Positions 6,156 through 60,594 of a stretch of DNA of 64,000 bases are shown in pieces. Position 1 is the stretch's first letter. Every line of letters begins with the position of its first letter. Made by a program: the position numbers and the translations under genes. The DNA is from an uncultured Bacilli bacterium. GTDB lineage: Bacteria; Bacillota_I; Bacilli_A; RF39; UBA660. The stretch is from NCBI GenBank assembly GCA_934096105.1, contig CAKOLH010000004.1:2494-66493 (forward strand), given 5' to 3'. Below the pieces are notes generated by a model that searched no databases, was not told the origin of the DNA, and saw nothing but the letters and a program-made list of their open reading frames with translations.

Positions 6156-6497
6156 ATGGAAAGAACTGAAGCTAAAGCAGTAGCAAAAACAGTTAGAATA
6201 TCTCCTAGAAAGACTAGACTTATTATTGATTTAATAAGAGGTAAGAGTGTTGAAGAAGCAAGAGCTATTCTTGCTAACCAACCTCAAAGAGCATCTAGAG
6301 TTATTTCTAAAGTATTAGAAAGTGCTACAGCAAATGCTGTTAATAACTTTGGCATGAAGGAAGAAAATCTTTATGTTAAGACATGTTTCGTTGATGAAGC
6401 ATTAGTAATTAAAAGAATTAAATTTGATTCAAGAGGTCGTACAGGAAGAAACGATCATAAGACAAGTCACATTACTGTAATAGTGGCTGAGAAATAA
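6156..6497 (+). CDS. rplV: 50S ribosomal protein L22
   Basis: [17 protein letters not shown] motif, operon order. Confidence 0.95.
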
Positions 6498-6514
6498 GTG
6501 AGGAGGAGCGTTTA

Positions 6515-7177: not shown

Positions 7178-7586
7178 ACATAGAAAAACTTTCCGTTTAC
7201 CTTATGAAGGAAAGAGTAAAGGTAATACTGAACTTCATTTTGGAAGTTATGGTTTAATGGCAAAAGAAGGAGCTTGGATTACAGCTAATCAAATCGAAGC
7301 AGCCAGAATAGCTATGACTAGATATATGAAGAGAGGTGGTAAAGTTTGGATTAATATATTCCCTAACTTATCACTTACTAAGAAACCTCTAGAAACTAGA
7401 CAAGGTAAAGGTAAAGGTAATCCAGAAGTATGGGTTGCAGTTGTTAAAGAAGGTAAAATTATGTTTGAAATAGATGGCGTAGATGAAGCTACTGCTAGAG
7501 AAGCATTAAGACTTGCTTCACATAAGTTACCTATCAAATGTAAGTTTGTAAAGAAAGAAGAAAGTGGTGAAATAAATGAAAACTAA
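7155..7586 (+). CDS. rplP: 50S ribosomal protein L16
   Basis: [11 protein letters not shown]... Overlaps the rpsC 3' end, as is typical. Confidence 0.97.
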
Positions 7587-7767
7587 TGAACTTAGAAAAT
7601 TAACCACAGAAGATTTAAATAAAAAAATCGCAGAATGTAAAGAAGAACTTTTCAATTTAAGAATGCAAAAGGCTACTGGTATGCTAGAAAAACCTTCTAG
7701 AATACATGAATTAAGAAAAGAAGTAGCAAGAATAAATACTATTCTTAATGAGAGAAGAGAAGGGTAA
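7576..7767 (+). CDS. rpmC: 50S ribosomal protein L29
   Basis: 63 aa, [10 protein letters not shown]...LFNLRMQ motif, operon order. Confidence 0.93.
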
Positions 7768-7781
7768 GTGAGGTGTAAGTT

Positions 7782-8036
7782 ATGAAAGAAAGAAAAGAAT
7801 TAATCGGTGTAGTTGTTTCAGATAAAGCTGATAAGACTATTACAGTTAAAGTTGAAACTTACAAGAAACATCCATTATATGGAAAAAGAGTTAAATATTC
7901 AAAGAAATATGCTGCTCACGATGAAAATAATATGGCACATGTTGGAGATAAAGTTCGCTTAGCCCAAACTAGACCATTATCTAAAACAAAGAGATATGAA
8001 CTAGTAGAAGTAATAGAGAAAGCTGTTATTCTATAA
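7782..8036 (+). CDS. rpsQ: 30S ribosomal protein S17
   Basis: 84 aa, [17 protein letters not shown]...HPLYGK motif. Confidence 0.95.
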
Positions 8037-8063
8037 GCTCTTTAGTCGGAAGGAGGAAATAAT

Positions 8064-8432
8064 ATGGTACAACAAGAAACGCGTCTAAAAGTCGCAGATA
8101 ACTGTGGAGCTCGTGAAGTATTAGTAATCAGAGTTCTAGGTGGAAGTAAAGTAAAAACAGGTAATATTGGAGATATAGTTGTATGTACAGTTAAGAAAGC
8201 TACTCCTAATGGTACTATAAAAGCAGGTAAAGTAGTAAAAGCCGTTATAGTAAGAACTAAAAGAGGAGTTAGAAGAGACGACGGAAGTTATATTAGATTT
8301 GATGATAACGCATGTGTTATTATTAAAGATGATAAGAGTCCAGTAGGTACACGTATTTTAGGTCCAGTAGCACGTGAACTTAGAGATAAAGAATTTACTA
8401 AGATTGTAAGTTTAGCTAAAGATGTGTTATAG
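8064..8432 (+). CDS. rplN: 50S ribosomal protein L14
   Basis: [19 protein letters not shown]... Confidence 0.97.
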
Positions 8433-8451
8433 GATGTAAGGAGGATATAAT

Positions 8452-8757
8452 ATGAAACTAAAAACTGGTGATAAAGTAGTAGTAGTTTCTGGTTCAAATA
8501 AAGGTAAGGAAGGAAAAATTACTAAGATCTTAGATTCTAGAGTTATCGTTGAAGGTGTTAACATTGTTAAGAAACATTTAAAACCTAAAAACAATAATGG
8601 TAATGGTGAAATAATCGAAACTGAAGCACCTATACATGTATCTAATGTAATGTTAGTAGATCCTAAGACAAAGAAACCTACTAAGGTAAAAATAGACAAA
8701 GATAGTAAAGGCAAGAAGATTAGAATATCTAAAAAGTCTAATGAAAAAATAGATTAA
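8452..8757 (+). CDS. rplX: 50S ribosomal protein L24
   Basis: MKLKTGDKVVVVSGSNKGKEG (KOW motif). Confidence 0.95.
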   Translation: MKLKTGDKVVVVSGSNKGKEGKITKILDSRVIVEGVNIVKKHLKPKNNNGNGEIIETEAPIHVSNVMLVDPKTKKPTKVKIDKDSKGKKIRISKKSNEKID

Positions 8758-8816
8758 TTATTATAGGAGTGAACATCCTAATATAATTTAGAGATTTGGA
8801 AGGAGGGCGAGCTAGA

Positions 8817-9356
8817 ATGAACCGCCTAAGAGAAAAATATATTAAAGAAGTTGTTCCAAGTTTAACAGAAAAGTATAATTATTCTACACCTATGTTAGTT
8901 CCTAAACTAGAAAAAGTAGTTGTTAATATGGGAGTAGGAGATGCTACTGTTAATTCAAAAAATCTAGAAAATGCTGTAAATGAATTAGAAAAAATTACAG
9001 GACTTAAAGCTGTAGAAACTACCGCTAAAAAATCAATAGCTTCATTTAAAGTAAGAGAAGGACATAAAATTGGTTGTAAAGTTACTCTAAGAGGAGAAAA
9101 GATGTATACTTTCTTAGATAAGTTAATATCTATCTCTTTACCTAGAGTTAGAGATTTCAGAGGACTTTCTCCAAAAAGTTTTGATGGAAGAGGAAATTAT
9201 ACAATCGGTATTAAAGAACAAATTATCTTCCCAGAAATTAATTTTGATGAAGTAGAAAAAGTTAGAGGTATGGATGTAGTATTAGTTACTACTGCTAAAA
9301 CTAATGAAGAAGCATTTGATTTATTAAAAGAACTTGGAGTTCCTTTTAGGAAATAA
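8817..9356 (+). CDS. rplE: 50S ribosomal protein L5
   Basis: [14 protein letters not shown]... with a GGAAGGAGGG RBS upstream. The track start at 8796 (TTG) lies inside the RBS. Confidence 0.95.
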
Positions 9357-9372
9357 AGAAGAGGAGACTAAG

Positions 9373-9558
9373 ATGGCAAGAAAATCAATGATTGTTAAAT
9401 CAGAAAGAGAACCTAAATTTAAGGTTAGAAAATACACTAGATGTAAAATTTGTGGAAGACCTCATGCAGTTCTTAAGAAATATGGAATTTGCCGTATTTG
9501 TTTTAGAGAACTTGCTTACAAAGGTCAAATACCTGGTGTAAAGAAATCAAGTTGGTAA
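9373..9558 (+). CDS. rpsN: 30S ribosomal protein S14, zinc-binding type Z (61 aa)
   Basis: MARKSMIVK...[10 protein letters not shown]...CRICFRE (CxxC...CxxC) with a GAGGAG RBS. The track start at 9334 overlaps the rplE end. Confidence 0.95.
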
Positions 9559-9589
9559 ACCCAAAAATTAAAAGAAGGAGGGATTAATA

Positions 9590-9979
9590 ATGACAGATCC
9601 AATCGCAGATATGCTTACAAGAATACGTAATGCTAATCAAAATAGAAGTGCCTCTTGTGAAATCCCAGCATCTAATATGAAAGAAGAAATTGCTAAAATT
9701 CTAAAGAATGAAGGATTTATAGAGGATTATAAAATTGAAGGCGAAACTGCTAATAGAATGATGACATTAACATTAAAATATAAAAATAAAGAAAGAGTTA
9801 TTACTGGACTTAAGAGAATTTCTAAACCTGGTCTAAGAGTATATGCTGGTGCTGATGAGCTTCCTACTGTACTTAATGGTCTTGGTATAGCAATTATCTC
9901 TACATCTAAAGGAATTATGACTGATAAAGAGGCTAGAAAGAATTCCTTAGGTGGAGAAGTAATAGCTTATGTATGGTAA
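9590..9979 (+). CDS. rpsH: 30S ribosomal protein S8
   Basis: [15 protein letters not shown]... Confidence 0.97.
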
Positions 9980-9988
9980 GGTGAAATA

Positions 9989-10528
9989 ATGAGCCGTATT
10001 GGTAAAAGAGCTTTATCTATACCTGAAAATGTTAATGTTAATGTAGAAAATAATGTTGTTACTGTTAAAGGACCTAAAGGAGAACTTACTTTAGATCTAG
10101 TAAAGAACATTAGTGTTAAAGTAGTTGATAATACTGTAGTAGTTGAACCACTTAAAGATGATAAATTTACTCATGCTATGCATGGTACTACTAATGCTAA
10201 CATTAAGAATATGATTGAAGGCGTTAGTAATGGTTATAAGAAAGGATTAGAAATCGTTGGTGTTGGTTATAAGTTTAATGCTAGTGGCAATAAGCTTACT
10301 ATATCAGCAGGATATTCTCATCCAGTGGTTATAGATGTACCTAATGGTTTATCTGTAGCTCAAATAAGTAATACTGAAATCGAAATATCAGGAATCGATA
10401 AGGTAAAAGTTGGTGAATTTGCCGCTAATATAAGAAAAGTAAGAAGTCCAGAACCATATAAGGGTAAAGGTATTAAATACAAAGGTGAACAAATTCGTCG
10501 TAAAGAAGGAAAGAAAGCTTCTAAATAA
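9989..10528 (+). CDS. rplF: 50S ribosomal protein L6
   Basis: MSRIGKRALSIPENV... Confidence 0.96.
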   Translation: MSRIGKRALSIPENVNVNVENNVVTVKGPKGELTLDLVKNISVKVVDNTVVVEPLKDDKFTHAMHGTTNANIKNMIEGVSNGYKKGLEIVGVGYKFNASGNKLTISAGYSHPVVIDVPNGLSVAQISNTEIEISGIDKVKVGEFAANIRKVRSPEPYKGKGIKYKGEQIRRKEGKKASK

Positions 10529-10549
10529 TAAATAGGAGGAGACTTAAGT

Positions 10550-10912
10550 ATGATTAAGAAAGTTTCAAGAAATGAAATGAGAAAAGTTAGACACACAAGA
10601 ATCAGAGAAAATTTGTCTGGTACTAGTGAAAGACCTAGACTTTGTGTGTTCAGATCTAATGCAAATATTGAAGCTCAAATCATTGACGATGTTAAGGGTG
10701 TTACTTTAGTTAGTGCATCATCATTAGAAAAAGAATTAAATCTTAAAAATGGTGGTAACATAGAAGCTGCTAAAGTAATTGGAGCTGAAGTTGCAAAAAG
10801 AGCTAAGAAAGCAAAAATAAATGCCGTTGTATTTGATAGAGGAGGATATCTTTATCATGGACGTGTTCAAGCTTTAGCAGAAGCTGCACGTGAAAATGGC
10901 TTAGAATTCTAG
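10550..10912 (+). CDS. rplR: 50S ribosomal protein L18
   Basis: [10 protein letters not shown]...[21 protein letters not shown]. Confidence 0.96.
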
Positions 10913-48920: not shown

Positions 48921-51286
48921 TGAAGTTATCAAGAAAATTTGTAAGTGATTATATTGATATAAATGATGATATTAATACAGTAGCAGAAAAAATGACTGGC
49001 GTTGGCAACGAATACGATAGTGCTGGTAAATTAATAAATGCCTCTAATTTAGTAATCGGTGAAGTATTAGAATGTGATATGCATCCAGATTCAGATCATT
49101 TACATGTATGTAAGGTAAATGTATGTGATGAAGTACTTCAAATTGTATGTGGTGCTCCTAATGTAAGAAAAGGATTAAAAGTAATAGTAGCCTTACCTGG
49201 AGCAGAACTTCCTGGTGGTACTATTAAAAAAGGTGTTATAAGAGGAGTAGAATCAAATGGTATGTTATGTTCTATTGCTGAACTAGGTTTAGATCATAAA
49301 TTCCTAAAAGAAGAAGATATAAATGGTATTCATGAATTACCAGAAGATGCCCCAGTAGGTGAAGATCCTATCAAATACTTAAAATTAGATGACGAAGTAA
49401 TAGATTTTGAGTTAACTTCAAATAGGGGAGACCTACTTAGTATACTAGGTATGGCTTATGAACTTGGAGCAATCTATGATGAAAAAGTAAAAGCTATAGA
49501 TTTATCACATAAAGAAGGTATTGGAAATATAAAAGATGAATTAGAATTAAAAGTAGATACTGAGGCATGTCCATTGTTCCTTGCTAGAAAAGTAGTAAAT
49601 GTTACGATAAAAGAAAGTCCTACTTTTATTAAGAATAGATTAATAGCTTCAGGTATTAGACCTATTAATAATGTTGTAGATATTTCTAATTATGTAATGT
49701 TAGAAACTGGTCAGCCACTTCACTACTATGACGCTGATAGATTAGGAAGTACACTTGGAGTAAGGATGGCTAATGATAATGAAGAAATAACTACTTTAGA
49801 TAATCAAAAGAGAACTCTATCTAATTCAGATATAGTAATATATAATAATACTGGGGCTATTGGTCTAGCAGGTATTATGGGAGGACTATCTACTGAAGTA
49901 GAAAATGATACTAAAAATATCGTTATTGAAAGTGCTATCTTTGATCCAGTATTAATTAGAAAGACAAGTAAGAAAGTATTAAGAAGTGAGGCTTCAAATA
50001 GATTTGAAAAAGGTCTAGATCCAAAGAGAACATATATGGCTATGGAAAGAAGTCTTAACTTACTTGAAAAGTATGCATCTGCTAGTGTAGTAGGAGGTAT
50101 GCTAGAACATAAAAATATTGATATCAAAGATAAAGAAATAGAAATAGCATATAATAAAATAAATAAAATACTTGGAATAGAACTAGATAAAAATACTATT
50201 CTAGATATCTTTAGAAAACTAGATTTTACTACTTTAGATAAGGGAAATACAGTATTGGTTACAGTTCCAAGTAGAAGAATAGATATTGCTATTGAAGAAG
50301 ATTTAGTAGAAGAAGTAGGAAGAATATACGGTATAGATAATATTGAAGGTAGAAAGATGATTCTTCCGGTTAGAATGGGTAAGGTAGATAAAACTAATAG
50401 AAGTATTCGTCATTTACTTAGTAATTTAGGTTTATCTGAAACACTTACTTACTCACTAATAAAAGAAAGTGAAGTACATAAATATACTAATGATACTTTT
50501 GATAGTATAAGACTACAAGATCCTATGACGGAAGAGAGAAGTACTTTGAGATATAGTTTAATACCAAGTTTACTTTCAGTATATGATTATAATATTAATC
50601 GTGGTAATAATAATATTAATCTATTTGAAATAGGAAAGAGTTATTATGTAAAAGATAATATTCATTATGAAGATGAAAAACTAACTATTTTAATGAGTGG
50701 TACTTATTATAATAAATTAGGTAGTAATAGAGAAATAAACTACTATATAACAAAAGGTATACTAGAAAAAGTACTTAATTATTTAGGATATAATAATAGA
50801 TATTATTATAGAAAGGAAGATTTACCTAAAGAATTACATCCAGGAGTAGCTGCAAGTATCTATATAGATAATAAAAAAGTAGGTATTATTGGTAAGATAC
50901 ATCCTAATGTTACTAAAGATAATATCTTTGTTATAGAACTTAATTTATCTTTATTAAAAGATATTAAAGTATCTAAGATGAAATATAAAGAAATAAGTAA
51001 ATTCCCTGGTATTAGTAAAGATATAGCCTTTGTCCTTGACAAAAATATAACTTCAGAAGAAGTAATTAAAACTATCAAGAAAGCCGGAGGTAAACTTCTT
51101 ACTAAGATAGAAGTATTTGACTTATATGTAGATTCTTCATTAGGAGAAAATAATAAATCATTAGCCTTCTCATTATATTTTGAAGATCCAAATAAGACTC
51201 TTACTTTAGATGAAATAACTGAAATATTTGATAAAATAGCTACTGATGTAGAAAAGAAACATAATGCTAAATTAAGAAATAATTAA
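48920..51286 (+). CDS. pheT: Phenylalanine--tRNA ligase beta subunit
   Basis: tRNA-binding OB domain (VGEVLECDMHPDSDHLHVCKV), B3/4, B5 and FDX-ACB domains, 788 aa. Confidence 0.95.
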   Translation: MKLSRKFVSDYIDINDDINTVAEKMTGVGNEYDSAGKLINASNLVIGEVLECDMHPDSDHLHVCKVNVCDEVLQIVCGAPNVRKGLKVIVALPGAELPGGTIKKGVIRGVESNGMLCSIAELGLDHKFLKEEDINGIHELPEDAPVGEDPIKYLKLDDEVIDFELTSNRGDLLSILGMAYELGAIYDEKVKAIDLSHKEGIGNIKDELELKVDTEACPLFLARKVVNVTIKESPTFIKNRLIASGIRPINNVVDISNYVMLETGQPLHYYDADRLGSTLGVRMANDNEEITTLDNQKRTLSNSDIVIYNNTGAIGLAGIMGGLSTEVENDTKNIVIESAIFDPVLIRKTSKKVLRSEASNRFEKGLDPKRTYMAMERSLNLLEKYASASVVGGMLEHKNIDIKDKEIEIAYNKINKILGIELDKNTILDIFRKLDFTTLDKGNTVLVTVPSRRIDIAIEEDLVEEVGRIYGIDNIEGRKMILPVRMGKVDKTNRSIRHLLSNLGLSETLTYSLIKESEVHKYTNDTFDSIRLQDPMTEERSTLRYSLIPSLLSVYDYNINRGNNNINLFEIGKSYYVKDNIHYEDEKLTILMSGTYYNKLGSNREINYYITKGILEKVLNYLGYNNRYYYRKEDLPKELHPGVAASIYIDNKKVGIIGKIHPNVTKDNIFVIELNLSLLKDIKVSKMKYKEISKFPGISKDIAFVLDKNITSEEVIKTIKKAGGKLLTKIEVFDLYVDSSLGENNKSLAFSLYFEDPNKTLTLDEITEIFDKIATDVEKKHNAKLRNN

Positions 51287-51305
51287 AAAGCAATTAAGAA
51301 ATTAG

Positions 51306-51338
51306 AAAGATATAGTGAATAATTTACTATATCTTTTT
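51306..51338 (+). terminator. Intrinsic terminator after pheT
   Basis: AAAGATATAGT-gaataattt-ACTATATCTTT then TT. Confidence 0.85.
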
Positions 51339-51511
51339 ATGTATAAATATAATTTATATGGTATATAAAAAATTAATATTTGTAACACATCATTTTAGTA
51401 TTACTATATTGCTTGTAGGAGGCTTGGTTTGATTTTTTAGAACGTTTGTGAAGTTTTACCTAATTAATTTTTGGTTTTCATTGCGATTTGGTAAAAGTTG
51501 TCAAAAAAGGG

Positions 51512-51539
51512 TTGACAAACATTCTAAAAAGATATAAAA
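51512..51539 (+). promoter_or_regulatory. Promoter with an overlapping inverted repeat (possible operator)
   Basis: TTGACA (51512-17), 16 nt, TATAAA. The inverted repeat TTGTCAA-aaaaggg-TTGACAA spans the -35 element. Confidence 0.55.
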
Positions 51540-51576
51540 TCAACTTAAATTATTTAAAAAAGAGGAGTTGAGCATT

Positions 51577-51711
51577 ATGATAAAATATGTTATGTTAAAT
51601 ATTAGTTCTATACTTAATAATGTTAGAAATAATTTAACTGACATATTTTTCTGCTGCTGCAAAATTAAAAATATTGTTATTACTAAAGAGCAGTACTCAG
51701 TGAATGGCTAA
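51577..51711 (+). CDS. Putative 44-aa leader peptide with three consecutive Cys codons (absent from the ORF track)
   Basis: AGAGGAG RBS 9 nt upstream. Hand translation gives MIKYVMLNISSILNNVRNNLTDIFFCCCKIKNIVITKEQYSVNG. The last 9 codons or so form the 5' arm of the following terminator. Confidence 0.4.
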   Translation: MIKYVMLNISSILNNVRNNLTDIFFCCCKIKNIVITKEQYSVNG

Positions 51712-51743
51712 TTTGATGTCGTTCACTGGAGTGCTGCTCTTTT
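51685..51743 (+). terminator. Strong terminator/attenuator hairpin upstream of the rel homologue
   Basis: AAGAGCAGTACTCAGTGAA ... TTCACTGGAGTGCTGCTCTT, about 19 bp with one G-U pair and one bulge, then TTTTG. It sits between the promoter and the first long ORF. Confidence 0.75.
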
Positions 51744-51760
51744 GTTATATATGGTGGTGA

Positions 51761-53206
51761 ATGAAAATGAATAAACTTACTGTTGATGATTTGCTTAATC
51801 TAGTTAAAAGTTATAATCCTGATGAAGTAGAAATCATAAAAAGAGCATATTATTATGCTGACAATCTTCATACGGGACAAAAAAGACAAAGTGGAGAGCC
51901 TTATATTACTCATCCTCTCAATGTTGCTTATATTCTCGCAGAAATGCATGCTGATAGGGATACAGTATGTGCTGGATTATTACATGATACTTTGGAAGAT
52001 ACTCATATTACCAAGGAAGATATTTCACACGATTTTAATCCTGAAATAGCTGCTTTAGTAGATGGAGTAACAAAGATAAGTAAACTTAACTTTTCTACTA
52101 AACAAGAACAAAATGTAGCTAATACTAGGAAGATAATTACTGGTATTACAAGTGATGTCAGAATAATAATTATTAAACTAGCAGATAGACTTCATAATAT
52201 GCGAACTATGGAGTATAAGTCAGAATTCAAACAAAAAGAAAATTCACTAGAAACTATGGATATATTTGTACCTCTTGCTTATTATATTGGAGCATATAGA
52301 ATAAAAAGTGAATTGGAAGATTTATCTTTTAGATATTTAAAACCAGATATTTATATGAATTTATTTGAAAAAAATAAGAAAATAGAAGAAGAAAATAAGA
52401 ACCTTTTATTAGAAATGAAATATAAAATAGAAAATATTTTAAAAGATAATAATATACCTAACGAGATTAAAGTTAGAACTAAGAATATATATGGTATATA
52501 TAAGAGATTACACGAAGGACAGAGACTATCTGATATACATGATTTATTTTCTCTTAAAATAATGGTAGATGAAATAGATAATTGCTACAGGGGATTAAGA
52601 TATGTACATAGTTTATATCATCCTATAAATAATAAGTTTAAAGATTATATATGCAATCCTAAAACTAATATGTATAGTAGCCTTCATACAACAGTATTTG
52701 GTCCTGAGGGAAGACTTGTTCAAACACAAATTAGAACATTTGATATGGATAAAATTGCATCGTTTGGTCTTACCGCTTATTTTGATATAAATAAAGGTGC
52801 AGCAAGAAGAATTATGCAAGAAGATTTAAAGAATAAGTATCAGTTTTTTAGTTCATTATTAGAAATTAATTCAGTATTTGCAGACAATCAAGAATTTGTT
52901 AATCAAATAAAAAATGAATTATTTTCTGATAAGGTATATATTTATGGTACAGATGGCAAAATAGTGGAATTACCTAAAGGATCAACGATAATAGATTATG
53001 CATTTAACTTAGATTCTGATATTGGTAATACTATGGTAGGTGCTATCGTTAATGATGATTATAAAGATGTTAGTTATGTTCTTAAAAACAATGATAGAGT
53101 AAGAATTATTAGTGATGAGTTATCATTTGGTCCAAGAGAAGAATGGATTGCTAAGGCAGTTACTACTAAGGCAAGAAAGAGAATAAGAGACTTTAGAAAG
53201 ATGTAG
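51761..53206 (+). CDS. RelA/SpoT homologue: HD hydrolase, synthetase-like and TGS domains; no C-terminal regulatory domains
   Basis: HD motifs HPLNVAYILAEM...LLHDTLEDT. Synthetase-like region YGIYKRL...DLFSLKIMV...KDYICNPKTNMYSSLHTTV...VQTQIRT. TGS YIYGTDGKIVELPKGSTIIDYAF. 481 aa against the usual 730 or so. The start could be 51767. Confidence 0.8.
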   Translation: MKMNKLTVDDLLNLVKSYNPDEVEIIKRAYYYADNLHTGQKRQSGEPYITHPLNVAYILAEMHADRDTVCAGLLHDTLEDTHITKEDISHDFNPEIAALVDGVTKISKLNFSTKQEQNVANTRKIITGITSDVRIIIIKLADRLHNMRTMEYKSEFKQKENSLETMDIFVPLAYYIGAYRIKSELEDLSFRYLKPDIYMNLFEKNKKIEEENKNLLLEMKYKIENILKDNNIPNEIKVRTKNIYGIYKRLHEGQRLSDIHDLFSLKIMVDEIDNCYRGLRYVHSLYHPINNKFKDYICNPKTNMYSSLHTTVFGPEGRLVQTQIRTFDMDKIASFGLTAYFDINKGAARRIMQEDLKNKYQFFSSLLEINSVFADNQEFVNQIKNELFSDKVYIYGTDGKIVELPKGSTIIDYAFNLDSDIGNTMVGAIVNDDYKDVSYVLKNNDRVRIISDELSFGPREEWIAKAVTTKARKRIRDFRKM

Positions 53207-53217
53207 AGGAGGTAAAT

Positions 53218-54426
53218 ATGAATATTGGTTTTGATATAGACGATACAATTACTAATTCTAGTGAGGTATTTGTGAAATATGCGATAGAGTATAATCGTAT
53301 GAAGAAAATTAACTATTCAATTAGAAAAAATGAAATGGATCAAACGCTTGCATTTGGATGGAACGATAATAACAAAATAGAATTTAAAAAATTATTTTTA
53401 GAAAAAATTTTAATGGAATCTACTCCAAACGAAGATGTAATTAATGTAATCAACTATTTAAAAAATAACCATCATACAATATTTTTAATCACAGCGAGAA
53501 GTGATTATGAAATTTCCAATATATATGAATTGACGGAAAAATGGTTGTTAAAAAATAAAATTAAATATGATAAATTATTTGTTAATTCTAAGGACAAACT
53601 TTCTATTTGCAAGGAAAATAACATTGATATATATGTTGATGATAATTTTGATATTTGTAATAATATTTTTAAAAATTCAAAAATAGATGTTATAATATAC
53701 ACAACAAAGTATAATGAAAATATTAAAACTAAATTTAAACGAGTATTTAATTGGCATCAAATATTGTTATACATAAAAAAAGTGGAAAAGGAGAAAAAAG
53801 TGAAAAGAGAGTTAAAATACATTGATGTTGAAAAAAGAGAAGATTTTCCACCAGAACCAAAAGGAATGAGATTTATTCATTTTTATGGTGGAACGAAAAA
53901 CTATAGAGGATACTTGGTTTCAGAAAACTTATCACGTGCAGATTTTATGGAACAGTATTCGGAATATATACCAATACAAAATGCTCCTGTATATGAAAAT
54001 AATGGAATAATATTGAGAGCAGATCCAAAATTTCCATGTCCAGGTTTTTATATTTTATCATTAAATAAAACATATAAAGCTTTTGACTTACTTGACGACG
54101 TAACATTTTTAAGATTTTCATTTATATTAAAGAAAGCAAAAGAAGGAATGAGAAATGTTTTGGGAATAAATTATGCACATTTGCTTTCAAACGAAAAATC
54201 CGATCCATATGTTAATGTTCATTTTTGGCTGGTTCCAGTAAATGGTATAACTTCACCAGATTTATTGGATTTTGATGTTAAAGCATATTTAAATAGTTTT
54301 ATTCCAAAAGAAAATATTGATAAGATAATAATTTATAATAATAAATTAAAGAAATACTTTGAAGAAATAAAATTGGTTGAACAAGATAACGCATTATCTA
54401 TAAAATTGAATAGTGAAACTAAATAA
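53218..54426 (+). CDS. Fusion protein: HAD-superfamily 5'(3')-deoxyribonucleotidase-like N-domain plus HIT-like C-domain
   Basis: N-terminus has the DxDxT motif GFDIDDTIT, then ...FLITARS..., ...YVDDN. The C-terminus has PGFYILS...GINYAHLLSNE...VNVHFWLVP, resembling a HIT fold that keeps only the central His of HxHxH. Confidence 0.5.
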   Translation: MNIGFDIDDTITNSSEVFVKYAIEYNRMKKINYSIRKNEMDQTLAFGWNDNNKIEFKKLFLEKILMESTPNEDVINVINYLKNNHHTIFLITARSDYEISNIYELTEKWLLKNKIKYDKLFVNSKDKLSICKENNIDIYVDDNFDICNNIFKNSKIDVIIYTTKYNENIKTKFKRVFNWHQILLYIKKVEKEKKVKRELKYIDVEKREDFPPEPKGMRFIHFYGGTKNYRGYLVSENLSRADFMEQYSEYIPIQNAPVYENNGIILRADPKFPCPGFYILSLNKTYKAFDLLDDVTFLRFSFILKKAKEGMRNVLGINYAHLLSNEKSDPYVNVHFWLVPVNGITSPDLLDFDVKAYLNSFIPKENIDKIIIYNNKLKKYFEEIKLVEQDNALSIKLNSETK

Positions 54427-54461
54427 ATAATAAAGTAGTTGAATATTGGAGGTAACAAAAT

Positions 54462-55352
54462 ATGCATTTAAATTTATTTGTAAGTCAAAAATGTTTTTTG
54501 TATTGTAAAGGGTGTTATAGTTTTTCTAGAATTGAAAAATCTGGCCAAACATTAGATACCCAAAAAATTATTGAATTTTTAAAATATGCGTATGATCATG
54601 GTATTGACAAAGTTACGCTTTGTGGAGGAGATCCTTTAACTAGAAATGATATAATTAATTTATTAAAAATGATTAAAAGCATTGGTTATTATATTTCAAT
54701 TGATACTGTAGGCACATCAATAATTAGAGATGTAGTAAAAAATGATGGTACTATTACGAAAAAAATTGATGCCAAGGATTTGTCCGAATTAGTAGATGAG
54801 ATAGGATTACCTATTGATGGTTCAAATAATGAAATATTTAGAAAATTTAGACAAACTGATTTCGACTTGTTGTCTGATCAGTTAAAAATATGTAATGAAT
54901 TAAATAAATATGGCATTAATATTTGTATTAATACTGTAGTTCACAAAGAAAATTTAAATGATGCTAAATTATTGTGTGAGATAATAAATAAACTAAATTA
55001 TATTAAAAAATGGCAATTATTTAAATATGCTCCAATGGGTAAATATGGTGTCTTGAATCGAAAACAATTTGAAATATCTGAAATACAATTTGAAGAGTAT
55101 AAGCAAAATATTTTGAATGCATGTTTAAGAAAAGACATTATTGATTTTAAAAACTTTGATGTAAGAACTAAATTATATATGTTAATAGATAATTCTGGGA
55201 ATGCATGGATACCAGAATATAATCAAGGAATGTTTGACAATTATAATATAGTAACTGATAATAGAAAAATAATAGGAAACATAACTAACCAAACAGATTG
55301 GAGTGGATTATGTAAAATATTAAAGTTAGGAGAAAATAAAAATGAAACATGA
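54462..55352 (+). CDS. Radical SAM enzyme, viperin-like (candidate prokaryotic viperin)
   Basis: CFLYCKGCY (Cx3Cx2C), KVTLCGGDPL, IGLPIDGSNNEIF and INTVVHKENL...IKKWQLFKY. These parallel viperin NYHFTRQCNYKCGFCFH, KINFSGGEPF, ISCDSFDEE and INSVINRFN...RWKVFQC. About 296 aa with no SPASM domain. Confidence 0.5.
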   Translation: MHLNLFVSQKCFLYCKGCYSFSRIEKSGQTLDTQKIIEFLKYAYDHGIDKVTLCGGDPLTRNDIINLLKMIKSIGYYISIDTVGTSIIRDVVKNDGTITKKIDAKDLSELVDEIGLPIDGSNNEIFRKFRQTDFDLLSDQLKICNELNKYGINICINTVVHKENLNDAKLLCEIINKLNYIKKWQLFKYAPMGKYGVLNRKQFEISEIQFEEYKQNILNACLRKDIIDFKNFDVRTKLYMLIDNSGNAWIPEYNQGMFDNYNIVTDNRKIIGNITNQTDWSGLCKILKLGENKNET

Positions 55353-56736
55353 AGATATTAAATTAATATTGAATAATGATGAATACATTGGAAAAGAAAT
55401 AACTGTTTGTGGTTGGATTAGAGCAATTAGAAAAAACAAAAGTATACTTTTTTTAGAAATTAATGATGGAACATCATTAAAAAATTTACAATTAGTAGTT
55501 GATTATGCGTTGATTACAACAGAAAAGTTATTTAGTAAATTAAGTATTGGTTCTTCTATTGCTGTTAATGGCATTGTTGTTAATTCAATAAATTCAAGTC
55601 AGAAAATAGAGTTAAAGGTTAAAGAAATAAAATTACTTGGAAAATGTCCGAATGATTATCCTATTCAAAGAAAAAAACAAAATATGGAATATTTGCGGAA
55701 TTATCCACATCTTAGGACAAGAACCAATACTTTTAATGCTGCCTTTAGAATAAGAAGTATGTTGATAAAATATATTCATGACTATTTTCAAGAACATGAT
55801 TATATATATGTTAATACTCCGATAATTACAGGTAGTAATTGTGAGGGTGCTGGAGAAATGTTTAGAGTTACTACACACGATTTAGACAAATTATCTAAAG
55901 AGCCTTATGACGCAAATTTAAATAGTAAGGATTTTTTTGGAAAAAAGGTCAATTTAACTATTTCCGGTCAATTAGAAGCGGAAGCAATGGCATGTAGTTT
56001 AGGTAAAGTTTACACATTTGGTCCTAGTTTTAGAGCAGAAAATTCTAACACAAAAAAACATGCCGCTGAATTTTGGCTATTTGAACCTGAAATGGCCTTT
56101 ACTGATTTAAATGAAGCAATGAATGTTGTTGATGAATTATTAAAAAATGTATTTAAACGAATTTTATGTAATTGCTCACAAGAAATAGATTTCTTTACTA
56201 ATTTTTATGATAGCAATTTATTAAATAAACTTAACAATGTTGTTGAAAGTAAATTCCCAGTCCTTGAATATTCTGATGTTATAAATATATTGCAATCTTC
56301 AGAAATTGGTTTTGAATTTCCAATATATATGGGATGTGATTTAAAAAGCGAACATATTCGTTATTTGACGGATGTCATATTTAAAAAACCCATATATATT
56401 ATTAATTATCCTAGAGATTTAAAACCTTTTTATGTAAAAATAAATAACGACGGAAAAACAGTAGCAGCAGCAGATTTGTATTTTCCTGGAATCGGTGATA
56501 TTATAGGCGTATGTCAGAAAGAAGATGACTTTGAATTGTTAAGTCGGAGAATAAAAGAATTGAATATGACTGAGGAAGATTATTCTTGGTATTTAGATTT
56601 GAGAAAATACGGAACGGTTCCACATAGTGGCTTTGGATTAGGTATTGAAAGACTTGTAATGTATACTACCGGACTGGACAACATTAGAGATACTATATGT
56701 TTTCCAAGAACTAAATGCAAAAAACTTAAACTGTAA
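55342..56736 (+). CDS. asnS: Asparagine--tRNA ligase (class IIb)
   Basis: OB-fold N-domain (CGWIRAIRKNKSILFLEINDG), motif 2 FGPSFRAENSNTKKHAAEFWLFEPEMAF and motif 3 GFGLGIERLVMY. The start overlaps the radical SAM gene by 11 nt. Confidence 0.85.
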   Translation: MKHEDIKLILNNDEYIGKEITVCGWIRAIRKNKSILFLEINDGTSLKNLQLVVDYALITTEKLFSKLSIGSSIAVNGIVVNSINSSQKIELKVKEIKLLGKCPNDYPIQRKKQNMEYLRNYPHLRTRTNTFNAAFRIRSMLIKYIHDYFQEHDYIYVNTPIITGSNCEGAGEMFRVTTHDLDKLSKEPYDANLNSKDFFGKKVNLTISGQLEAEAMACSLGKVYTFGPSFRAENSNTKKHAAEFWLFEPEMAFTDLNEAMNVVDELLKNVFKRILCNCSQEIDFFTNFYDSNLLNKLNNVVESKFPVLEYSDVINILQSSEIGFEFPIYMGCDLKSEHIRYLTDVIFKKPIYIINYPRDLKPFYVKINNDGKTVAAADLYFPGIGDIIGVCQKEDDFELLSRRIKELNMTEEDYSWYLDLRKYGTVPHSGFGLGIERLVMYTTGLDNIRDTICFPRTKCKKLKL

Positions 56737-56784
56737 TATAAATTTTAAAAATAAAAAATTAATGAAATAAAAGGAGAAAAATGT

Positions 56785-57582
56785 ATGAAAAAGAAAATAG
56801 TGGCTATTGGTGGTGGAGAAAACGGAAGGTTTCTTGAAGATGGAACTAAAACTGAATATGAAACAGAAATAATGGATAAGGAAATTATTAAATTAACTGA
56901 AAAAGAAAAACCTAATTATTTATTTATTGCTCATGCAATGTGTTTTTCTGATGAAATTCAGGAAAGCTATTATGATACTATGAAGAAAATATACGATGAT
57001 AAATATGGATGTGACTGTATGTTCCTAAAGTCAACTAGTTTATACGATACTAATTTAGTAAAAGAAATGGTTGAATGGGCTGATATTATATATGAAGGTG
57101 GCGGTGATACTTCAGCTATGATTAAACTTTGGAAAGAAACAGGTTTTGATACTATTTTAAAATATGCTTGGCAAAATGGTAAAGTAATATGTGGCATTTC
57201 TGCAGGGGCGGTATGTTGGTTTAATTCTTGCAATTCCGATATAGATGCATCACATTTTGAAGTTACAGATTGTTTGAACTGGTTTGATGTATTTATTGTT
57301 CCACATTGTGATGAGGATGGCCGATATGAATCTGCGAAAAAACAACTTAGAGAAAATCAAAAAGTTGGACTTATGTTATCTAATTGTTCTGCTATTGAAA
57401 TTATTAATAATAAATATAAAATAATTTGCGCTGATACAAATAAAAGAAAATTTAAAAAAGGCTATGTATTAAAGTGTTACTGGCAAGACGATAGATATTA
57501 TGAAGAAAAACTAGAGGAAAATAATGAATATAAAATGTTAAGTGAGTTATTTTGCAAAAATATAGTAGATTTATCAAAGTAA
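56785..57582 (+). CDS. Peptidase S51 family (dipeptidase E / cyanophycinase-like)
   Basis: IVAIGGGE, IYEGGGDT, GISAGAVCW (Ser nucleophile) and VPHCDE (His). Confidence 0.7.
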   Translation: MKKKIVAIGGGENGRFLEDGTKTEYETEIMDKEIIKLTEKEKPNYLFIAHAMCFSDEIQESYYDTMKKIYDDKYGCDCMFLKSTSLYDTNLVKEMVEWADIIYEGGGDTSAMIKLWKETGFDTILKYAWQNGKVICGISAGAVCWFNSCNSDIDASHFEVTDCLNWFDVFIVPHCDEDGRYESAKKQLRENQKVGLMLSNCSAIEIINNKYKIICADTNKRKFKKGYVLKCYWQDDRYYEEKLEENNEYKMLSELFCKNIVDLSK

Positions 57583-57950
57583 AAAAATTTATTAGTACTC
57601 TAATTGAACATTATGCAGAGACTTTTCCTCTGTGGCTTAATCCAATACAAATTAATGTTATTCCAGTAAATAATGAATATCATTTAGAATATGCTAACGA
57701 AGTAGTAGAAGAACTTAGAAATAAAGGCTTTAGAGTAGAATTAGATGCTAGAGATGAAAAAATGGGATATAAGATTAGAGAATCACAAACTAAAAAGATT
57801 CCATTAACTCTAATTATTGGAGATCAAGAAAAAGATAATAATACTATTAGTTATAGAAAATTTGGCAGTCAAGCAACAATTACCAAAAAAACATTTGAGT
57901 TTATAAATGAATTAAATGAATGCTTAAAATCAAAGAAAAATAATTTATAA
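57552..57950 (+). pseudogene. thrS: 3' remnant of threonine--tRNA ligase (anticodon-binding domain only)
   Basis: KFISTLIEHYAETFPLWLNPIQINVIPV...GFRVELDARDEKMGYKIRESQTKKIPLTLIIGDQE matches the ThrRS C-terminus ([21 protein letters not shown]..VIP). There is no catalytic core, only a TTG start and no RBS. Homology begins at the stop of the preceding gene. Confidence 0.6.
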
Positions 57951-57971: not shown

Positions 57972-58475
57972 ATGAAATTGAATATAAGAAAAGCAGTGGC
58001 TTCTGATGTTGAAAGTATCGCAATGATTAATATTAGTAGTTGGCAAAAAACATATAAAGATATTTTTCCTTCTGATTTTTTAAATGGATTATCTGACAAA
58101 AAAAATCTAGATAATGTCATAATCCGTATGGAAGAAAATATTAAAAGTAACAATAGTTATTTAGTTGCAGAATCTAATAATCAAATTGTTGGTTTCTGCA
58201 AAATGGGTCCGTCTACAAAAGAAAATTATAAAAATTGTGGTGAAATTATGGCATTATATGTTAAGAATGAGGCAATAAAAAAAGGAATTGGAAAACAATT
58301 GTTTTTAGAAGCTAACAAACTATTAAAAGAAGTTTATGAATATAATGTAGTAAGTTGCATAAAAGAAAACAGTTCAAATGAATTTTATAAAAAAGTTGGA
58401 TGCAAATTTCTTGAAGAATGTGATTTTAATTTAAAAAATACTATTTATAAAGAAAATTTGTATAAATGTCCTTAA
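57972..58475 (+). CDS. GNAT family N-acetyltransferase
   Basis: IVGFCKMG...ALYVKNEAIKKGIGKQLF (acetyl-CoA binding R/Q-x-x-G-x-G/A-like). Confidence 0.8.
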   Translation: MKLNIRKAVASDVESIAMINISSWQKTYKDIFPSDFLNGLSDKKNLDNVIIRMEENIKSNNSYLVAESNNQIVGFCKMGPSTKENYKNCGEIMALYVKNEAIKKGIGKQLFLEANKLLKEVYEYNVVSCIKENSSNEFYKKVGCKFLEECDFNLKNTIYKENLYKCP

Positions 58476-58536: not shown

Positions 58537-58569
58537 AAAGGAGACAATAAAAGTATTCGTCTCCTTTTA
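58537..58569 (+). terminator. Intrinsic terminator ending the rel-to-GNAT operon
   Basis: AAAGGAGAC ... GTCTCCTTT then TT. Confidence 0.8.
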
Positions 58570-58571
58570 TT

Positions 58572-58602
58572 AAAAAAAACAGGTTATAGAGCCTGTTTTT
58601 TT
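58572..58602. terminator. Bidirectional terminator
   Basis: AAAAAAAACAGG-ttatagag-CCTGTTTTTTTT. Confidence 0.75.
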
Positions 58603-59020
58603 ATATGCATTCAACAACTGTATCATCTAGACATCTTAGTATGCAGCAGCATCCTAAATTAATAGTAAAGAATGAGTTTGTAGCTTCGTATGGAAATACA
58701 CTAGTCTCATCAGTATTAGGTGCAAGTACTCTGCAAGTAGCACAGCAGCCATCTAATTTTTCTAGTCTAAAGACAGTACTTGTAGTAGTAATACTTGGAT
58801 CTTTACTAATTGGCATTGCTAATGGAGTACTTCCTCCTGAACAAGTATATAACTGAATAGGTCTAGTGTTGTAACAGAAACTACTATTTTGTCCTAAGAA
58901 GCCTCTATCACAAGTCTCTAGGCAGCAGTCATTTTGACATACACTTTGCTGAAGTATAAGGATAACTTTAAGGATATCCGCGATGCAATTCTCGCAAGTA
59001 TTATTTTCATTATTACACAT
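58601..59020 (-). CDS. Cys-rich spore coat/exosporium protein, CotZ/CotY/ExsY family
   Basis: Start at MCNNENN after AAGGGGTGGA. VFRLEKLDGCCATCRVL and TINLGCCCILRCLD parallel B. subtilis CotZ FFRVERVHGSCATLSLL and VDLDCFCAINCLN. Confidence 0.7.
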   Translation of the reverse strand: MCNNENNTCENCIADILKVILILQQSVCQNDCCLETCDRGFLGQNSSFCYNTRPIQLYTCSGGSTPLAMPISKDPSITTTSTVFRLEKLDGCCATCRVLAPNTDETSVFPYEATNSFFTINLGCCCILRCLDDTVVECI

Positions 59021-59140
59021 ATAATCCACCCCTTTTTTGTATTCAATATAACTTATGACAAAAGTAAATAAAAATGCACTACGAATACCTATATAATCTA
59101 ATATTTTCATAAATTTTAATTATAAATCATATATATTAAT

Positions 59141-59406: not shown

Positions 59407-60594
59407 ATGAAAGAAAAAATATTTAGAATATTTTCTAGTAATATTAAAATTAGAGTTAGTGGTAGAAATATTAATAATTTTATTAAGAGAATAATAAAAA
59501 ATAATATCAAGATAGTTAAGTTGACTCCAAGAAGTCATAAAGAAGTAGATTTAATAATTGATTATAATGATTTAGAAGAAATAGAAAAATATAAAACTAT
59601 TTATGATATTAAAATAGTTAGGTATTATGGAAAACTTCATATAATTAAATTCTTAAAAAAGAATAGATTTATTTTATTATTCTTATTACTTGGTATGATA
59701 ATAGTATTTATATTATCCAATATGATATTTAATGTTGAAGTAATACATTCAAATAGTAAAATAATTAAACTGGTAACTGAAGAGTTAAAAGATCGTGGTA
59801 TTAAGAAATATGCTTTCGCTAAAAGTTATAGTGAAGTAGAAAAAATAGAAAAAGAAATACTTAATAATAATAAAGATAATTTAGAATGGCTTGAGATAAT
59901 AAGAAATGGTACTAAATATACTGTTAGAGTAGAAGAGAGAATTATTAATAAAGAAATAGATGATAACAAAAACTATGATATAGTCTCTTCAAAAAATGCT
60001 GTCATTAGGGTTATTGAAGCAGAGTCAGGTGAAAAAGTACGAGATATTAATACTTATGTTAAAAAAGGTGAAACTATAATATCAGCATATATTACTACTC
60101 CAAGTGAAGAGAGGATACTAAGTACTGCAAGAGGAAAGGTAATTGGAGAAGTTTGGTATACAATAGATATAAATTATCCATATTATCATCATGAAGTAAA
60201 ATATACTGGTAATAAGAAAAAAGTACTAGTATTTAACTTTATTAATAAAAGAATATCATTATTTGACTTTAAAAAGTATAAAACTTTTGACAAGAATATA
60301 AAAAATATATTTTATAATAATGTAACTCCAATATCATTAAATTATGAATATCAATATGAAACTGAAGTAACTAATGATATATATACTAAAGAAGAAGCTA
60401 AGAATAAAGCGGTAGAGACCGCTAAAGAGAAGCTGCTGCTTAAATATAGTAATATTAAAGAAGTAAAAGATGTTACTATTGTCAATGAGATAAGTAATGA
60501 TGAACAACTTAATTTAACCTTATTTGTCAAGACTTATGAAGATATTACTAAATATAGAGAAGTTATTATTAATGAAGAAGACACTACGAGTTAG
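59407..60594 (+). CDS. yqfD: Stage IV sporulation protein YqfD
   Basis: 395 aa, IKIRVSGRNINNFIKRIIKNNIKIVKL N-terminus, a central TM helix, and gene order after yqfC. Confidence 0.75.
   Translation: MKEKIFRIFSSNIKIRVSGRNINNFIKRIIKNNIKIVKLTPRSHKEVDLIIDYNDLEEIEKYKTIYDIKIVRYYGKLHIIKFLKKNRFILLFLLLGMIIVFILSNMIFNVEVIHSNSKIIKLVTEELKDRGIKKYAFAKSYSEVEKIEKEILNNNKDNLEWLEIIRNGTKYTVRVEERIINKEIDDNKNYDIVSSKNAVIRVIEAESGEKVRDINTYVKKGETIISAYITTPSEERILSTARGKVIGEVWYTIDINYPYYHHEVKYTGNKKKVLVFNFINKRISLFDFKKYKTFDKNIKNIFYNNVTPISLNYEYQYETEVTNDIYTKEEAKNKAVETAKEKLLLKYSNIKEVKDVTIVNEISNDEQLNLTLFVKTYEDITKYREVIINEEDTTS

Follow-up and report, generated by a model that had tools for sequence, protein, structure and literature searches.

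A HIT-like protein paired with a viperin-fold radical-SAM enzyme next to asnS: a candidate synthetase-coupled nucleotide-modifying cassette in an uncultured Bacilli bacterium

What is an enzyme with the fold of viperin doing next to the gene of an asparaginyl-tRNA synthetase (AsnRS)? The question is raised by a low-GC region (about 25-28% G+C) of a 64,000-nt stretch of DNA, here called the window, which covers positions 2,494-66,493 of contig CAKOLH010000004.1 (assembly GCA_934096105.1) from an uncultured Bacilli bacterium (RF39; UBA660). A preliminary description had seen there a candidate nucleotide-analogue system around a viperin-like radical S-adenosylmethionine (radical-SAM) protein. The open reading frames (ORFs) that it reported are all present on the plus strand, and asnS indeed starts 11 nt before the radical-SAM stop codon. 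We assigned the proteins of the window to families with Pfam and NCBIfam models; the genes at the centre of the question are these:

53218-54426, plus strand: 402-aa HAD-HIT-like fusion protein (AF2 model, Foldseek, DxDxT motif)
53218-53790, plus strand: HAD domain of the 402-aa protein, 5'(3')-deoxyribonucleotidase-like by structure
53791-54426, plus strand: HIT-like domain of the 402-aa protein (structure match, profile match)
54462-55352, plus strand: viperin-fold radical-SAM enzyme, 296 aa, CX3CX2C (Pfam Radical_SAM, 60 bits; AF2 model)
55342-56736, plus strand: asnS, full-length AsnRS (NF003037, 592 bits)
56785-57582, plus strand: S51-family serine hydrolase of a distinct subfamily (Peptidase_S51, PF03575, 116 bits)

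In our reading, the locus represents the Asn type among nucleotide-modifying cassettes that are coupled to aminoacyl-tRNA synthetases (aaRSs) and form one family; we give this a probability of roughly 0.4. The cassette probably makes or processes an amino-acid-linked modified nucleotide. We infer its substrate and chemistry, whether it synthesizes or destroys its product, and its role as antimetabolite, defence or signal; the firm ground is made up of the folds of the core proteins, their being obligately paired and at times fused, the sets of accessory genes, and the extra TyrRS and ProRS genes without a T-box to which sister clades are coupled.

The HIT-like domain as constant partner of the radical-SAM enzyme

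The neighbourhood was surveyed by tblastn in 37 related loci, and genes were counted in the 31 non-redundant ones. As the preliminary description expected, the linkage recurs beyond this genome: next to the radical-SAM gene, present in all 31, we found a HIT-like gene in 25 loci, an S51 gene in 15, AsnRS, a PNP_UDP_1-like gene and pheT in 8 each, and Rel in 5. It is the HIT-like domain, and not asnS, that is the constant partner of the radical-SAM enzyme. Wherever a Firmicute locus has its gene (24 cases), this lies immediately 5' of the radical-SAM gene; the same holds for Mycobacterium szulgai, and natural single-chain fusions of the two occur (P0185, P0187, P0191, L046, L051, L061). The HIT-like part had first been treated as peripheral. 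As partners, asnS and Rel are confined to one sub-lineage. Across loci the HIT-like domain is 70-80% identical, the radical-SAM enzyme only 52-69%, and Rel and AsnRS are likewise less conserved than the HIT-like domain. Seventeen further metagenomic HIT-like loci had a radical-SAM gene of the same family within reach in 10 cases; in the rest, flanks were short or none was found. The alignment used for a profile search of a 1.84-billion-protein library included the radical-SAM half of a fusion; the search recovered both halves, and its match counts mix two families.

In the window clade, the next gene after the pair encodes either the S51 hydrolase or a divergent member of the nucleoside-phosphorylase-I family (55 bits with the DeoD model, far under the cut-off), sometimes with a second small HIT protein alongside. 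S51 stays linked through rearrangements (HAD-HIT-rSAM-AsnRS-S51, HIT-rSAM-S51-HAD and HAD-HIT-rSAM-S51, rSAM being the radical-SAM gene), also in loci without asnS. Its assignment to family S51 stands, but the Asp-specific type first ascribed to it does not: the protein scores far under the cut-offs for PepE (25.9 vs 156 bits) and cyanophycinase (33.7 vs 126.6 bits). Two details of related loci may be recorded here. In L004, a locus without asnS, a 327-aa protein with no Pfam or NCBIfam match (9703-10686) lies between two S51 genes, directly after HAD-HIT and the radical-SAM gene. In the Clostridia-type L038, an RNase P RNA gene (6497-6849) stands directly 5' of the HIT-like gene, with dtd about 2 kb further upstream.

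The 402-aa protein is, as had been described, a fusion of a nucleotidase of the HAD type and a HIT-like domain; its AF2 model (pLDDT 89.9) has two domains. The N-terminal half has a HAD fold with a nucleotidase-type cap and carries the DxDxT motif as D6-I-D8-D-T10. In Foldseek it matches the deoxyribonucleotidase-like 3bwv (TM 0.77) and the human mitochondrial 5'(3')-deoxyribonucleotidase mdN (1mh9/1z4i, TM 0.69). By Pfam the window protein reaches only HAD_PNKP, at 22 bits and below cut-off, and its homologues match NT5C weakly. The placement of the HAD module varies: it is fused, encoded separately (L007), placed after S51 (L016, L019, L037) or joined to a NUDIX domain (P0186).

The C-terminal half of the window protein has no match in Pfam or NCBIfam. 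It adopts the alpha+beta HIT fold, matching the HIT protein 3lb5 in Foldseek at E 1e-5; a profile (A5) of diverse relatives finds the PDB HIT proteins 3lb5, 3l7x and 2oik at E 1e-3 to 4e-3, and the distant relatives P0240 and small HIT2 exceed the Pfam HIT cut-off. With the HIT superfamily (Hint/HinT, Fhit, GalT/Ap4A phosphorylase) the domain shares its fold and an alignable D...PG(F/H) strand and (H)xHx(H)xxP region, and many distant relatives are tandem double domains, a likeness to GalT. It differs in the histidine triad, HxHxHxx. Opposite H-L-H-F-H-I-I-P of 3lb5 it has N333-V-H335-F-W337-L-V-P340: the first and third His are replaced (N or S; W) and only the middle one, H335, is retained. 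This residue, at the position of the nucleophile in HIT enzymes, is about 90% conserved in the family. The domain is also longer at both ends, by about 60 aa that include an invariant GG at the N terminus and by a helical extension at the C terminus, and, unlike other members of the superfamily, it occurs with a radical-SAM enzyme.

Prokaryotic viperins (pVips) make 3'-deoxy-3',4'-didehydro-NTP (ddh-NTP) chain terminators as antiviral effectors. The motifs by which the radical-SAM protein had been likened to them are all in its translation: N4..S8..C11x3C15x2C18-Y19, CGGDPL (54-59), IDGSNNE (118-124), CINTVVHKEN (155-164), KKWQLFKY (182-189) and YMLIDN (239-244), most of them invariant in an alignment of 29 homologues. 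Beyond CX3CX2C, only C54 and C155 are invariant cysteines in these homologues, so that there is no SPASM or twitch cluster, again as first described. The AF2 model (pLDDT 87.8) is a partial (beta-alpha)6 barrel that is extended at the C terminus and carries a single CX3CX2C cluster. Its 15 best Foldseek matches in the PDB are all viperins or viperin-like proteins (E 1e-14 to 1e-12, TM 0.65-0.79) that span almost the whole chain; SuiB, SkfB, MoaA and anSME rank after them.

In sequence the two families lie far apart, with 14-18% identity. The curated viperin model NF038283 is nominally the best NCBIfam match, but at 70.8 bits against a cut-off of 180, and the next model, TIGR04053 of a SPASM family, follows about 4 bits below at 67. 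The PADLOC pVip model gives 77 bits (E 4e-22) over near full length, PADLOC setting no cut-off. Eight of ten more distant relatives score 48-68 bits with the viperin model and two have no match at E <= 1e-10; when the PDB is searched with the family profile, fungal viperins come up at no better than E about 1e-3. The term viperin-like thus holds for fold and size and fails for curated family membership: by sequence the enzyme is a separate family with a viperin fold. No model of QueE, NrdG, PflA or MoaA ranked above the viperin model, and these identities, like that of a SPASM maturase, were rejected for scores at or below it and for covering less of the protein. Sequence matches in the PDB to PqqE and MoaA are confined to the N-terminal cluster region.

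Viperin/pVip and the window family have in common a radical-SAM fold of about 290 aa (a partial TIM barrel) with a C-terminal extension and without auxiliary cluster, nucleotide-handling genes nearby, and the order of motifs: N-x-x-x-x-x-x-C-x3-C-x2-C-(F/Y), GG(E/D)P, xDS/xDG, xNTV, (R/K)W(K/Q)xF and Y(L/M)(I/L)(L/I)D. They part in context, where the window family has a HIT-like partner or fusion and is coupled to aaRSs rather than placed in defence islands, and in the pocket, where an invariant Cys and Gln take the place of two lysines. In an hmmsearch alignment with T. virens viperins, C155-I-N-T-V stands opposite K-L-N-T-V and K-W-Q185-x-F opposite R-W-K-x-F; C155 and Q185 are each found in 40 of 43 family members. 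The aligned viperin positions are two lysines of the triphosphate pocket, mouse K220 (FKINS) and K247 (RWKVF), which Fenwick and colleagues reportedly found in 2020 to act in the nucleotide-triphosphate pocket. A docking description (PMC11970327) is consistent with both lysines lining it. The family also conserves the basic residues R61, R130, K230 and R235, as well as Y239; residues specific to single clades are found at positions 4, 6, 8, 23, 54, 72, 121, 243, 244, 273 and 280. The chemistry of the enzyme is probably related to that of viperin, and its substrate is likely to be a different one.

Aminoacyl-tRNA synthetases beside the pair

The AsnRS of the window is a normal, high-scoring enzyme (NF003037, cut-off 414 bits; TIGR00457, 556 bits; Pfam tRNA_anti-codon and tRNA-synt_2), encoded by the single asnS of the window. 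AsnRS follows the radical-SAM gene in 8 related loci, with an overlap of 4 nt in L007, and asnS is duplicated in tandem in L001 (93% identical copies) and L028 (63%).

Sister cassettes with other synthetases were found with a profile of distant HIT-like proteins, on the contigs of its matches, and by a metagenome scan with a narrower alignment (A6). The Tyr type (L046, L061) has the order HIT-like protein, pyridoxal-phosphate (PLP) decarboxylase, HD phosphohydrolase, HIT-radical-SAM fusion, TyrRS, T-box, second TyrRS. The T-box between the tandem TyrRS genes lies at 11897-12088 in L046 and at 8836-9026 in L061, where the cassette TyrRS gene occupies 7547-8818 and the housekeeping one 9028-10263. 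The TyrRS beside the fusion, which lacks a T-box, is 47-50% identical to its T-box-regulated neighbour and retains HIGH and KMSKS; from L046 to L061 the cassette TyrRS is 82% identical and the housekeeping one 95%. The downstream gene with the T-box is the housekeeping TyrRS, and the upstream one is a divergent paralogue that belongs to the cassette.

The Pro type (L047, L058, L059) runs rel, PPDK_N-like gene, HIT-like gene, radical-SAM gene and a short ProRS without T-box; L047 has in addition a GNAT, a TrpRS and an S66 peptidase upstream, and S51 downstream. L044 carries TrpRS, a 221-aa protein, a tRNA-Tyr(GTA) (5027-5111, 21 nt 5' of the radical-SAM gene), the radical-SAM and HIT-like genes, a thymidylate-kinase-like (Tmk-like) gene and TyrRS; flanked by Fic, ParB-methylase and recombinase genes, this cassette appears to be a mobile unit with its own aaRS/tRNA pair. 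In L045, the catalytic domain alone of TyrRS stands beside radical-SAM, HIT-like, PLP decarboxylase and HD genes. L042, a Simiaoa-type locus common in human gut data, combines an NDK-radical-SAM fusion with a HIT-like protein, a PLP decarboxylase, an adenylation enzyme and a carrier protein. The most distant members lie among FkbH-like, ketosynthase, glycosyltransferase, PIG-L, GDPD and integrase genes.

In neighbour-joining trees of the radical-SAM and of the HIT-like proteins, clades match the type of aaRS. In at least 7 of some 16 independent architectures, the pair has an aaRS gene at most one or two genes away, where by a rough estimate chance would give about 7% per locus. Coupling to an aaRS is a trait of the wider HIT/radical-SAM family.

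The synthetases at this site also change. Rel orthologues are 72-76% identical 5' of Asn-, Pro- and Tyr-type cassettes, so that one and the same site holds different cassettes in related organisms. In the window, the thrS remnant, the last ~120 codons of the gene, shares 31 nt with the 3' end of the S51 gene, and no counterpart of it was seen in the first 37 related loci. It is the relic of another aaRS gene at this site, and aaRS genes have thus turned over here. The GNAT is not conserved across the same 37 loci either; it shares 33% identity with the GNAT that opens the Pro-type cassette L047.

What the cassette may do

In the mechanism that we propose, the core would be a two-protein enzyme, fused in some organisms, of a HIT-superfamily domain that keeps only the nucleophilic His and a viperin-fold radical-SAM enzyme. 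The HIT-like partner would bind a nucleoside 5'-monophosphoryl group, or carry a covalent His-nucleoside monophosphate, taken from an aminoacyl-adenylate, an NpnN dinucleotide or an NTP. The radical-SAM enzyme would then perform viperin-type radical chemistry on the ribose, abstraction of an H atom followed by elimination or rearrangement, with the conserved Cys in place of one phosphate-binding lysine of viperin. The 5'(3')-deoxyribonucleotidase-like HAD domain and S51 may trim the product, and a nucleoside-phosphorylase-like enzyme may do so elsewhere. The co-translated AsnRS would set the amino-acid specificity, either by giving activated Asn or as an additional or protected version of the enzyme that is targeted.

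Partners of two kinds suggest this division of labour. The phosphatases and kinases (HAD, HD, Tmk-like, NDK, PPDK_N) would act on the nucleotide; a nucleotide is suggested by these accessory genes together with the HAD-NUDIX fusion of P0186, the PNP_UDP_1-like and small HIT genes and the fusion of NDK with the radical-SAM enzyme. S51, S66, PLP decarboxylase and GNAT would act on the amino-acid part, to which AsnRS, TyrRS with PLP decarboxylase, ProRS, the tRNA-Tyr of L044 and the clade-matched types of aaRS point.

The proposal can be taken further, though we consider this extended form rather unlikely. HIT-like protein, radical-SAM enzyme and dedicated aaRS would together be a modular system specific for Asn, Tyr or Pro, whose product would be an aminoacyl-adenylate with an edited ribose (e.g. 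3',4'-didehydro or 3'-deoxy) or an amine-nucleotide conjugate. Such products would form a new class of endogenous antimetabolites or signals aimed at translation, against which the extra aaRS or tRNA, S51/S66 and GNAT would protect the producer; the Cys would be an H-atom donor in a non-viperin chemistry.

The viperin-type enzymes known at present make chain-terminating nucleotides, either alone or with the help of a kinase. The present locus points to a sister family that needs a HIT-fold partner, whose clades travel with different aaRSs and which occurs widely in uncultured Firmicutes of the human and animal gut. If its product is an amino-acid-linked modified nucleotide, it would offer a new radical-SAM reaction and a new way in which aaRS-directed compounds or alarmone-like signals arise in nature, and would account for the 'extra' aaRS genes of gut genomes. 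With about 500 aa in all, and with single-chain fusions available in nature, the pair lends itself to direct tests in vitro.

Several observations weigh against the cassette reading. The AsnRS of the window could be the only copy of its genome, and the neighbour-joining tree of AsnRS has two lineages without a clean split between cassette and housekeeping enzymes; a cassette-specific clade of AsnRS paralogues was rejected on this ground. Within the window clade, the orthologous pair stands beside AsnRS, beside pheST or without any aaRS, so that AsnRS is not obligatory and Asn specificity is only putative. Neighbouring pheST, rel, leuS, cysS, dtd and RNase P RNA genes would also be expected of a translation-linked housekeeping function, and no exporter or regulator is consistent across loci. 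No HIT-like gene was found within the available flanks of five alphaproteobacterial radical-SAM homologues (38% identity) and of L030, and the M. szulgai HIT-like protein has Arg at the position of the middle His. A literature search for viperin or radical SAM combined with HIT, tRNA synthetase or self-resistance returned nothing relevant, and no experiment on any member was found. Neither core protein is named by a curated model, public names being only 'radical SAM protein' and 'hypothetical protein', and the cassette is apparently undescribed.

The rival that survives best, though we hold it to be unlikely, restricts function to the HIT-radical-SAM pair, perhaps with HAD, and sees asnS, S51, Rel, the thrS remnant and GNAT as neighbours by descent and genome compaction. 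In the window clade the pair does occur with no asnS beside it (L004, L016, L040), and S51 (in several loci of the Clostridia type) or Rel can be missing too; neither GNAT nor the thrS remnant is a conserved neighbour, and the window AsnRS looks ordinary. Against mere proximity speak the persistence of S51 through rearrangements, the co-variation of aaRS type with the HIT and radical-SAM clades, the excess of nearby aaRS genes over chance, and the overlaps of the radical-SAM gene with asnS, here and in L007.

Next comes an immunity or salvage module, a doubtful alternative. It would destroy or recycle exogenous microcin C-like aminoacyl-nucleotides, or other modified nucleotides from the gut: HIT would cleave the phosphoramidate or adenylate, S51/S66 remove the amino acid, GNAT acetylate, HAD and the nucleoside phosphorylase recycle, and the aaRS copy buffer. 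Microcin C resistance does run through HIT (HinT), serine peptidase (MccF) and GNAT (MccE/RimL) proteins. The echo of such immunity heard in the preliminary description finds support in the sister cassette L047, where GNAT, S66 (the MccF family) and S51 recur with HIT-like, TrpRS and ProRS genes, as HIT-like, S51 and GNAT do in the window; HAD nucleotidase and phosphorylase-like genes would suit catabolism, and duplicated or extra aaRS genes target protection. Yet such a module leaves without a function what is conserved most, the obligate radical-SAM partner and the fusions that join it to HIT. The PLP decarboxylase, adenylation and carrier proteins, kinases, FkbH-like protein and ketosynthase of relatives look biosynthetic, GNAT and S66 occur in few loci only, and the HIT-like domain lacks two of the three triad His.

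Known systems resemble the locus in part. Like microcin C-type immunity and the aaRS-inhibitor clusters with a resistant aaRS (mupM, abmK, agnB2), it brings together a nucleotide enzyme, a peptidase, a GNAT and an aaRS of one specificity; relatives also have extra divergent aaRS paralogues adjoining the cassette and, in the Pro type, S66 with GNAT. Unlike microcin C-type systems, it has no identified MccB-like adenylating enzyme or precursor peptide and no consistent exporter, and in place of the MccE/MccF/HinT set it holds a GNAT, an S51 (not S66) and an atypical HIT-like domain. To our knowledge, a radical-SAM/HIT core is part of no microcin C-type or aaRS-inhibitor system. Biogenic-amine loci of lactic acid bacteria (tyrS-tdcA-tyrP; hdcA-hisS) place a second, matching aaRS beside a PLP decarboxylase (Pyridoxal_deC). 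The Tyr-type cassettes pair an extra aaRS with a PLP decarboxylase in the same way; the amine loci differ by their amino-acid/amine antiporter and by lacking radical-SAM, HIT and HD genes, and the Asn-type window has no decarboxylase.

A translation-linked housekeeping role seems distinctly unlikely. The pair would modify or repair a tRNA, for example at the 3'-terminal adenosine or at a nucleoside of the anticodon, or else an adenylate that aminoacylation leaves as a by-product; its company of aaRS genes, rel, dtd and rnpB would then be accounted for. The neighbourhoods offer aaRSs of five specificities (Asn, Phe, Tyr, Pro, Trp) with LeuRS and CysRS nearby, Dtd, RNase P RNA and MnmA, and a tRNA-Tyr inside L044; the HIT-like domain is conserved above Rel or AsnRS, and the TGS domain of long RelA/SpoT homologue (RSH) enzymes binds tRNA 3' ends. 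A housekeeping function fits poorly with a patchy distribution, with alternative cassettes at the same site downstream of rel in related genomes, with cassette aaRSs that are extra, faster-evolving paralogues beside T-box-regulated housekeeping copies, and with the mobile-element genes that flank several relatives; nucleotidase and nucleoside-phosphorylase partners point to small molecules.

Canonical pVip defence, in which CTP, UTP or GTP would become ddh-NTP terminators during phage infection while HAD and HIT limit self-toxicity, is the least probable explanation: for it speak the structural matches, the nominal first rank of NF038283, the near full-length PADLOC match and the nucleotide kinases fused or adjacent to some distant relatives, as in pVips, and against it the shortfall from the viperin cut-off, shared by the ten relatives, a lead of only ~4 bits over a SPASM family, the low identity, Cys155 and Gln185 in place of the FKxN and RWK lysines family-wide, and a context of translation genes instead of defence islands, with no phage or plasmid copies in scans. 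We know of no pVip system with an obligate HIT partner.

The operon, its leader and the spread of the family

On the plus strand, a T-box leader, pheS and pheT are followed, after a gap of 475 nt, by rel, the 402-aa ORF, the radical-SAM gene, asnS, S51, the thrS fragment and GNAT. Pfam and NCBIfam models agree with the identities first given to Rel, full-length asnS, the thrS remnant and GNAT. The remaining features of the operon are:

51512-51540, plus strand: promoter-like site TTGACA-17-TAAAAT of the rel-to-GNAT operon, 11/12 matches
51577-51711, plus strand: leader ORF of 44 aa with strong ribosome-binding site (RBS) and three consecutive Cys codons; stop codon inside the downstream hairpin
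51687-51745, plus strand: strong hairpin and T-run, candidate attenuator directly before the rel RBS (minimum free energy -44.8 kcal/mol, last 140 nt)
51761-53206, plus strand: rel, short RSH of 481 aa (HD, synthetase, TGS; Pfam/NCBIfam)
57552-57950, plus strand: thrS 3' remnant, anticodon-binding domain only (HGTP_anticodon; TIGR00418 positions 451-562)
57972-58475, plus strand: GNAT acetyltransferase (Pfam/NCBIfam)
58537-58606, strand not assigned: two terminator-like elements (hairpin plus T-run) closing the operon, read by eye; the second could serve both strands

The operon had been described as bounded by terminators. The promoter-like site and hairpins read by eye, one of them with a T-run after pheT (about 51298-51338), agree with this; an automatic pattern scan reported no terminators, missing the elements at 58537-58606 for their long loop and AT-rich stems. 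In an alignment, a TTGACA-type box is similarly placed 5' of rel in most related loci. Neither a T-box nor any other riboswitch known to Rfam turned up in 51200-51800 at E <= 1, and no T-box precedes asnS; control of the operon by such an element was rejected accordingly.

Rel matches TIGR00691 with 503 bits over model positions 1-450 of 687. It has HD_4, RelA_SpoT and TGS only, the ZFD and RRM regulatory domains of long RSH enzymes being absent. The same truncation (476-481 aa) is found in nine related loci (L001, L007, L023, L027, L046, L047, L058, L059, L062), and in this lineage a HIT/radical-SAM cassette of variable type always lies directly 3' of the short rel. Rel may be a mere neighbour, or may supply 3'-pyrophosphorylated nucleotides to the cassette.

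Nine rel leaders share one layout (window 51541-51760, L003, L012, L023, L027, L046, L047, L058, L059). Each has an ORF of 27-55 aa with a strong RBS and 1-8 Cys (26 of 347 residues overall), whose stop codon lies at or within a strong terminator hairpin with T-run just 5' of the rel RBS. The window peptide contains FFCCCK, and the count of 8 Cys is reached in L059. The hairpin region has no match in Rfam. Judged by its sequence, the leader looks like a cysteine-codon leader-peptide attenuator, or else a gene for a small Cys-rich peptide with a leaky terminator. The possibility that these ORFs encode precursors of ribosomally synthesized and post-translationally modified peptides for the radical-SAM enzyme was rejected: they track rel and not the cassette, and each ends in a terminator hairpin, for which reasons we treat them as leaders or attenuators.

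The family is patchily distributed: a pattern-limited scan of 185,579 species representatives gave 28 loci. When the window is compared with the Clostridia-type loci L014, L017 and L020-L022, HIT-like proteins are 72-75% identical, radical-SAM enzymes 52-56% and S51 proteins 53-58%, against only 24-37% for PheT, which indicates either horizontal spread of a three-gene module or extreme constraint. Integrase, recombinase, insertion-sequence or group II intron genes adjoin several relatives. A phage or plasmid origin was rejected, as pattern scans of IMG/VR with both proteins and tblastn against phage and plasmid collections gave no copies. The window clade sits among pheST, rel and asnS and not in defence islands; more distant clades have recombinase, integrase, Fic, Vsr and PLD genes in their vicinity, as well as Tmk-like or NDK genes.

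A CotZ-like spore-coat protein gene on the minus strand (Pfam; 58601-59110) adjoins the operon, and the 395-aa ORF after it (59407-60594) looks like the gene of a YqfD-type sporulation protein. The host is probably a spore-forming low-GC Firmicute.

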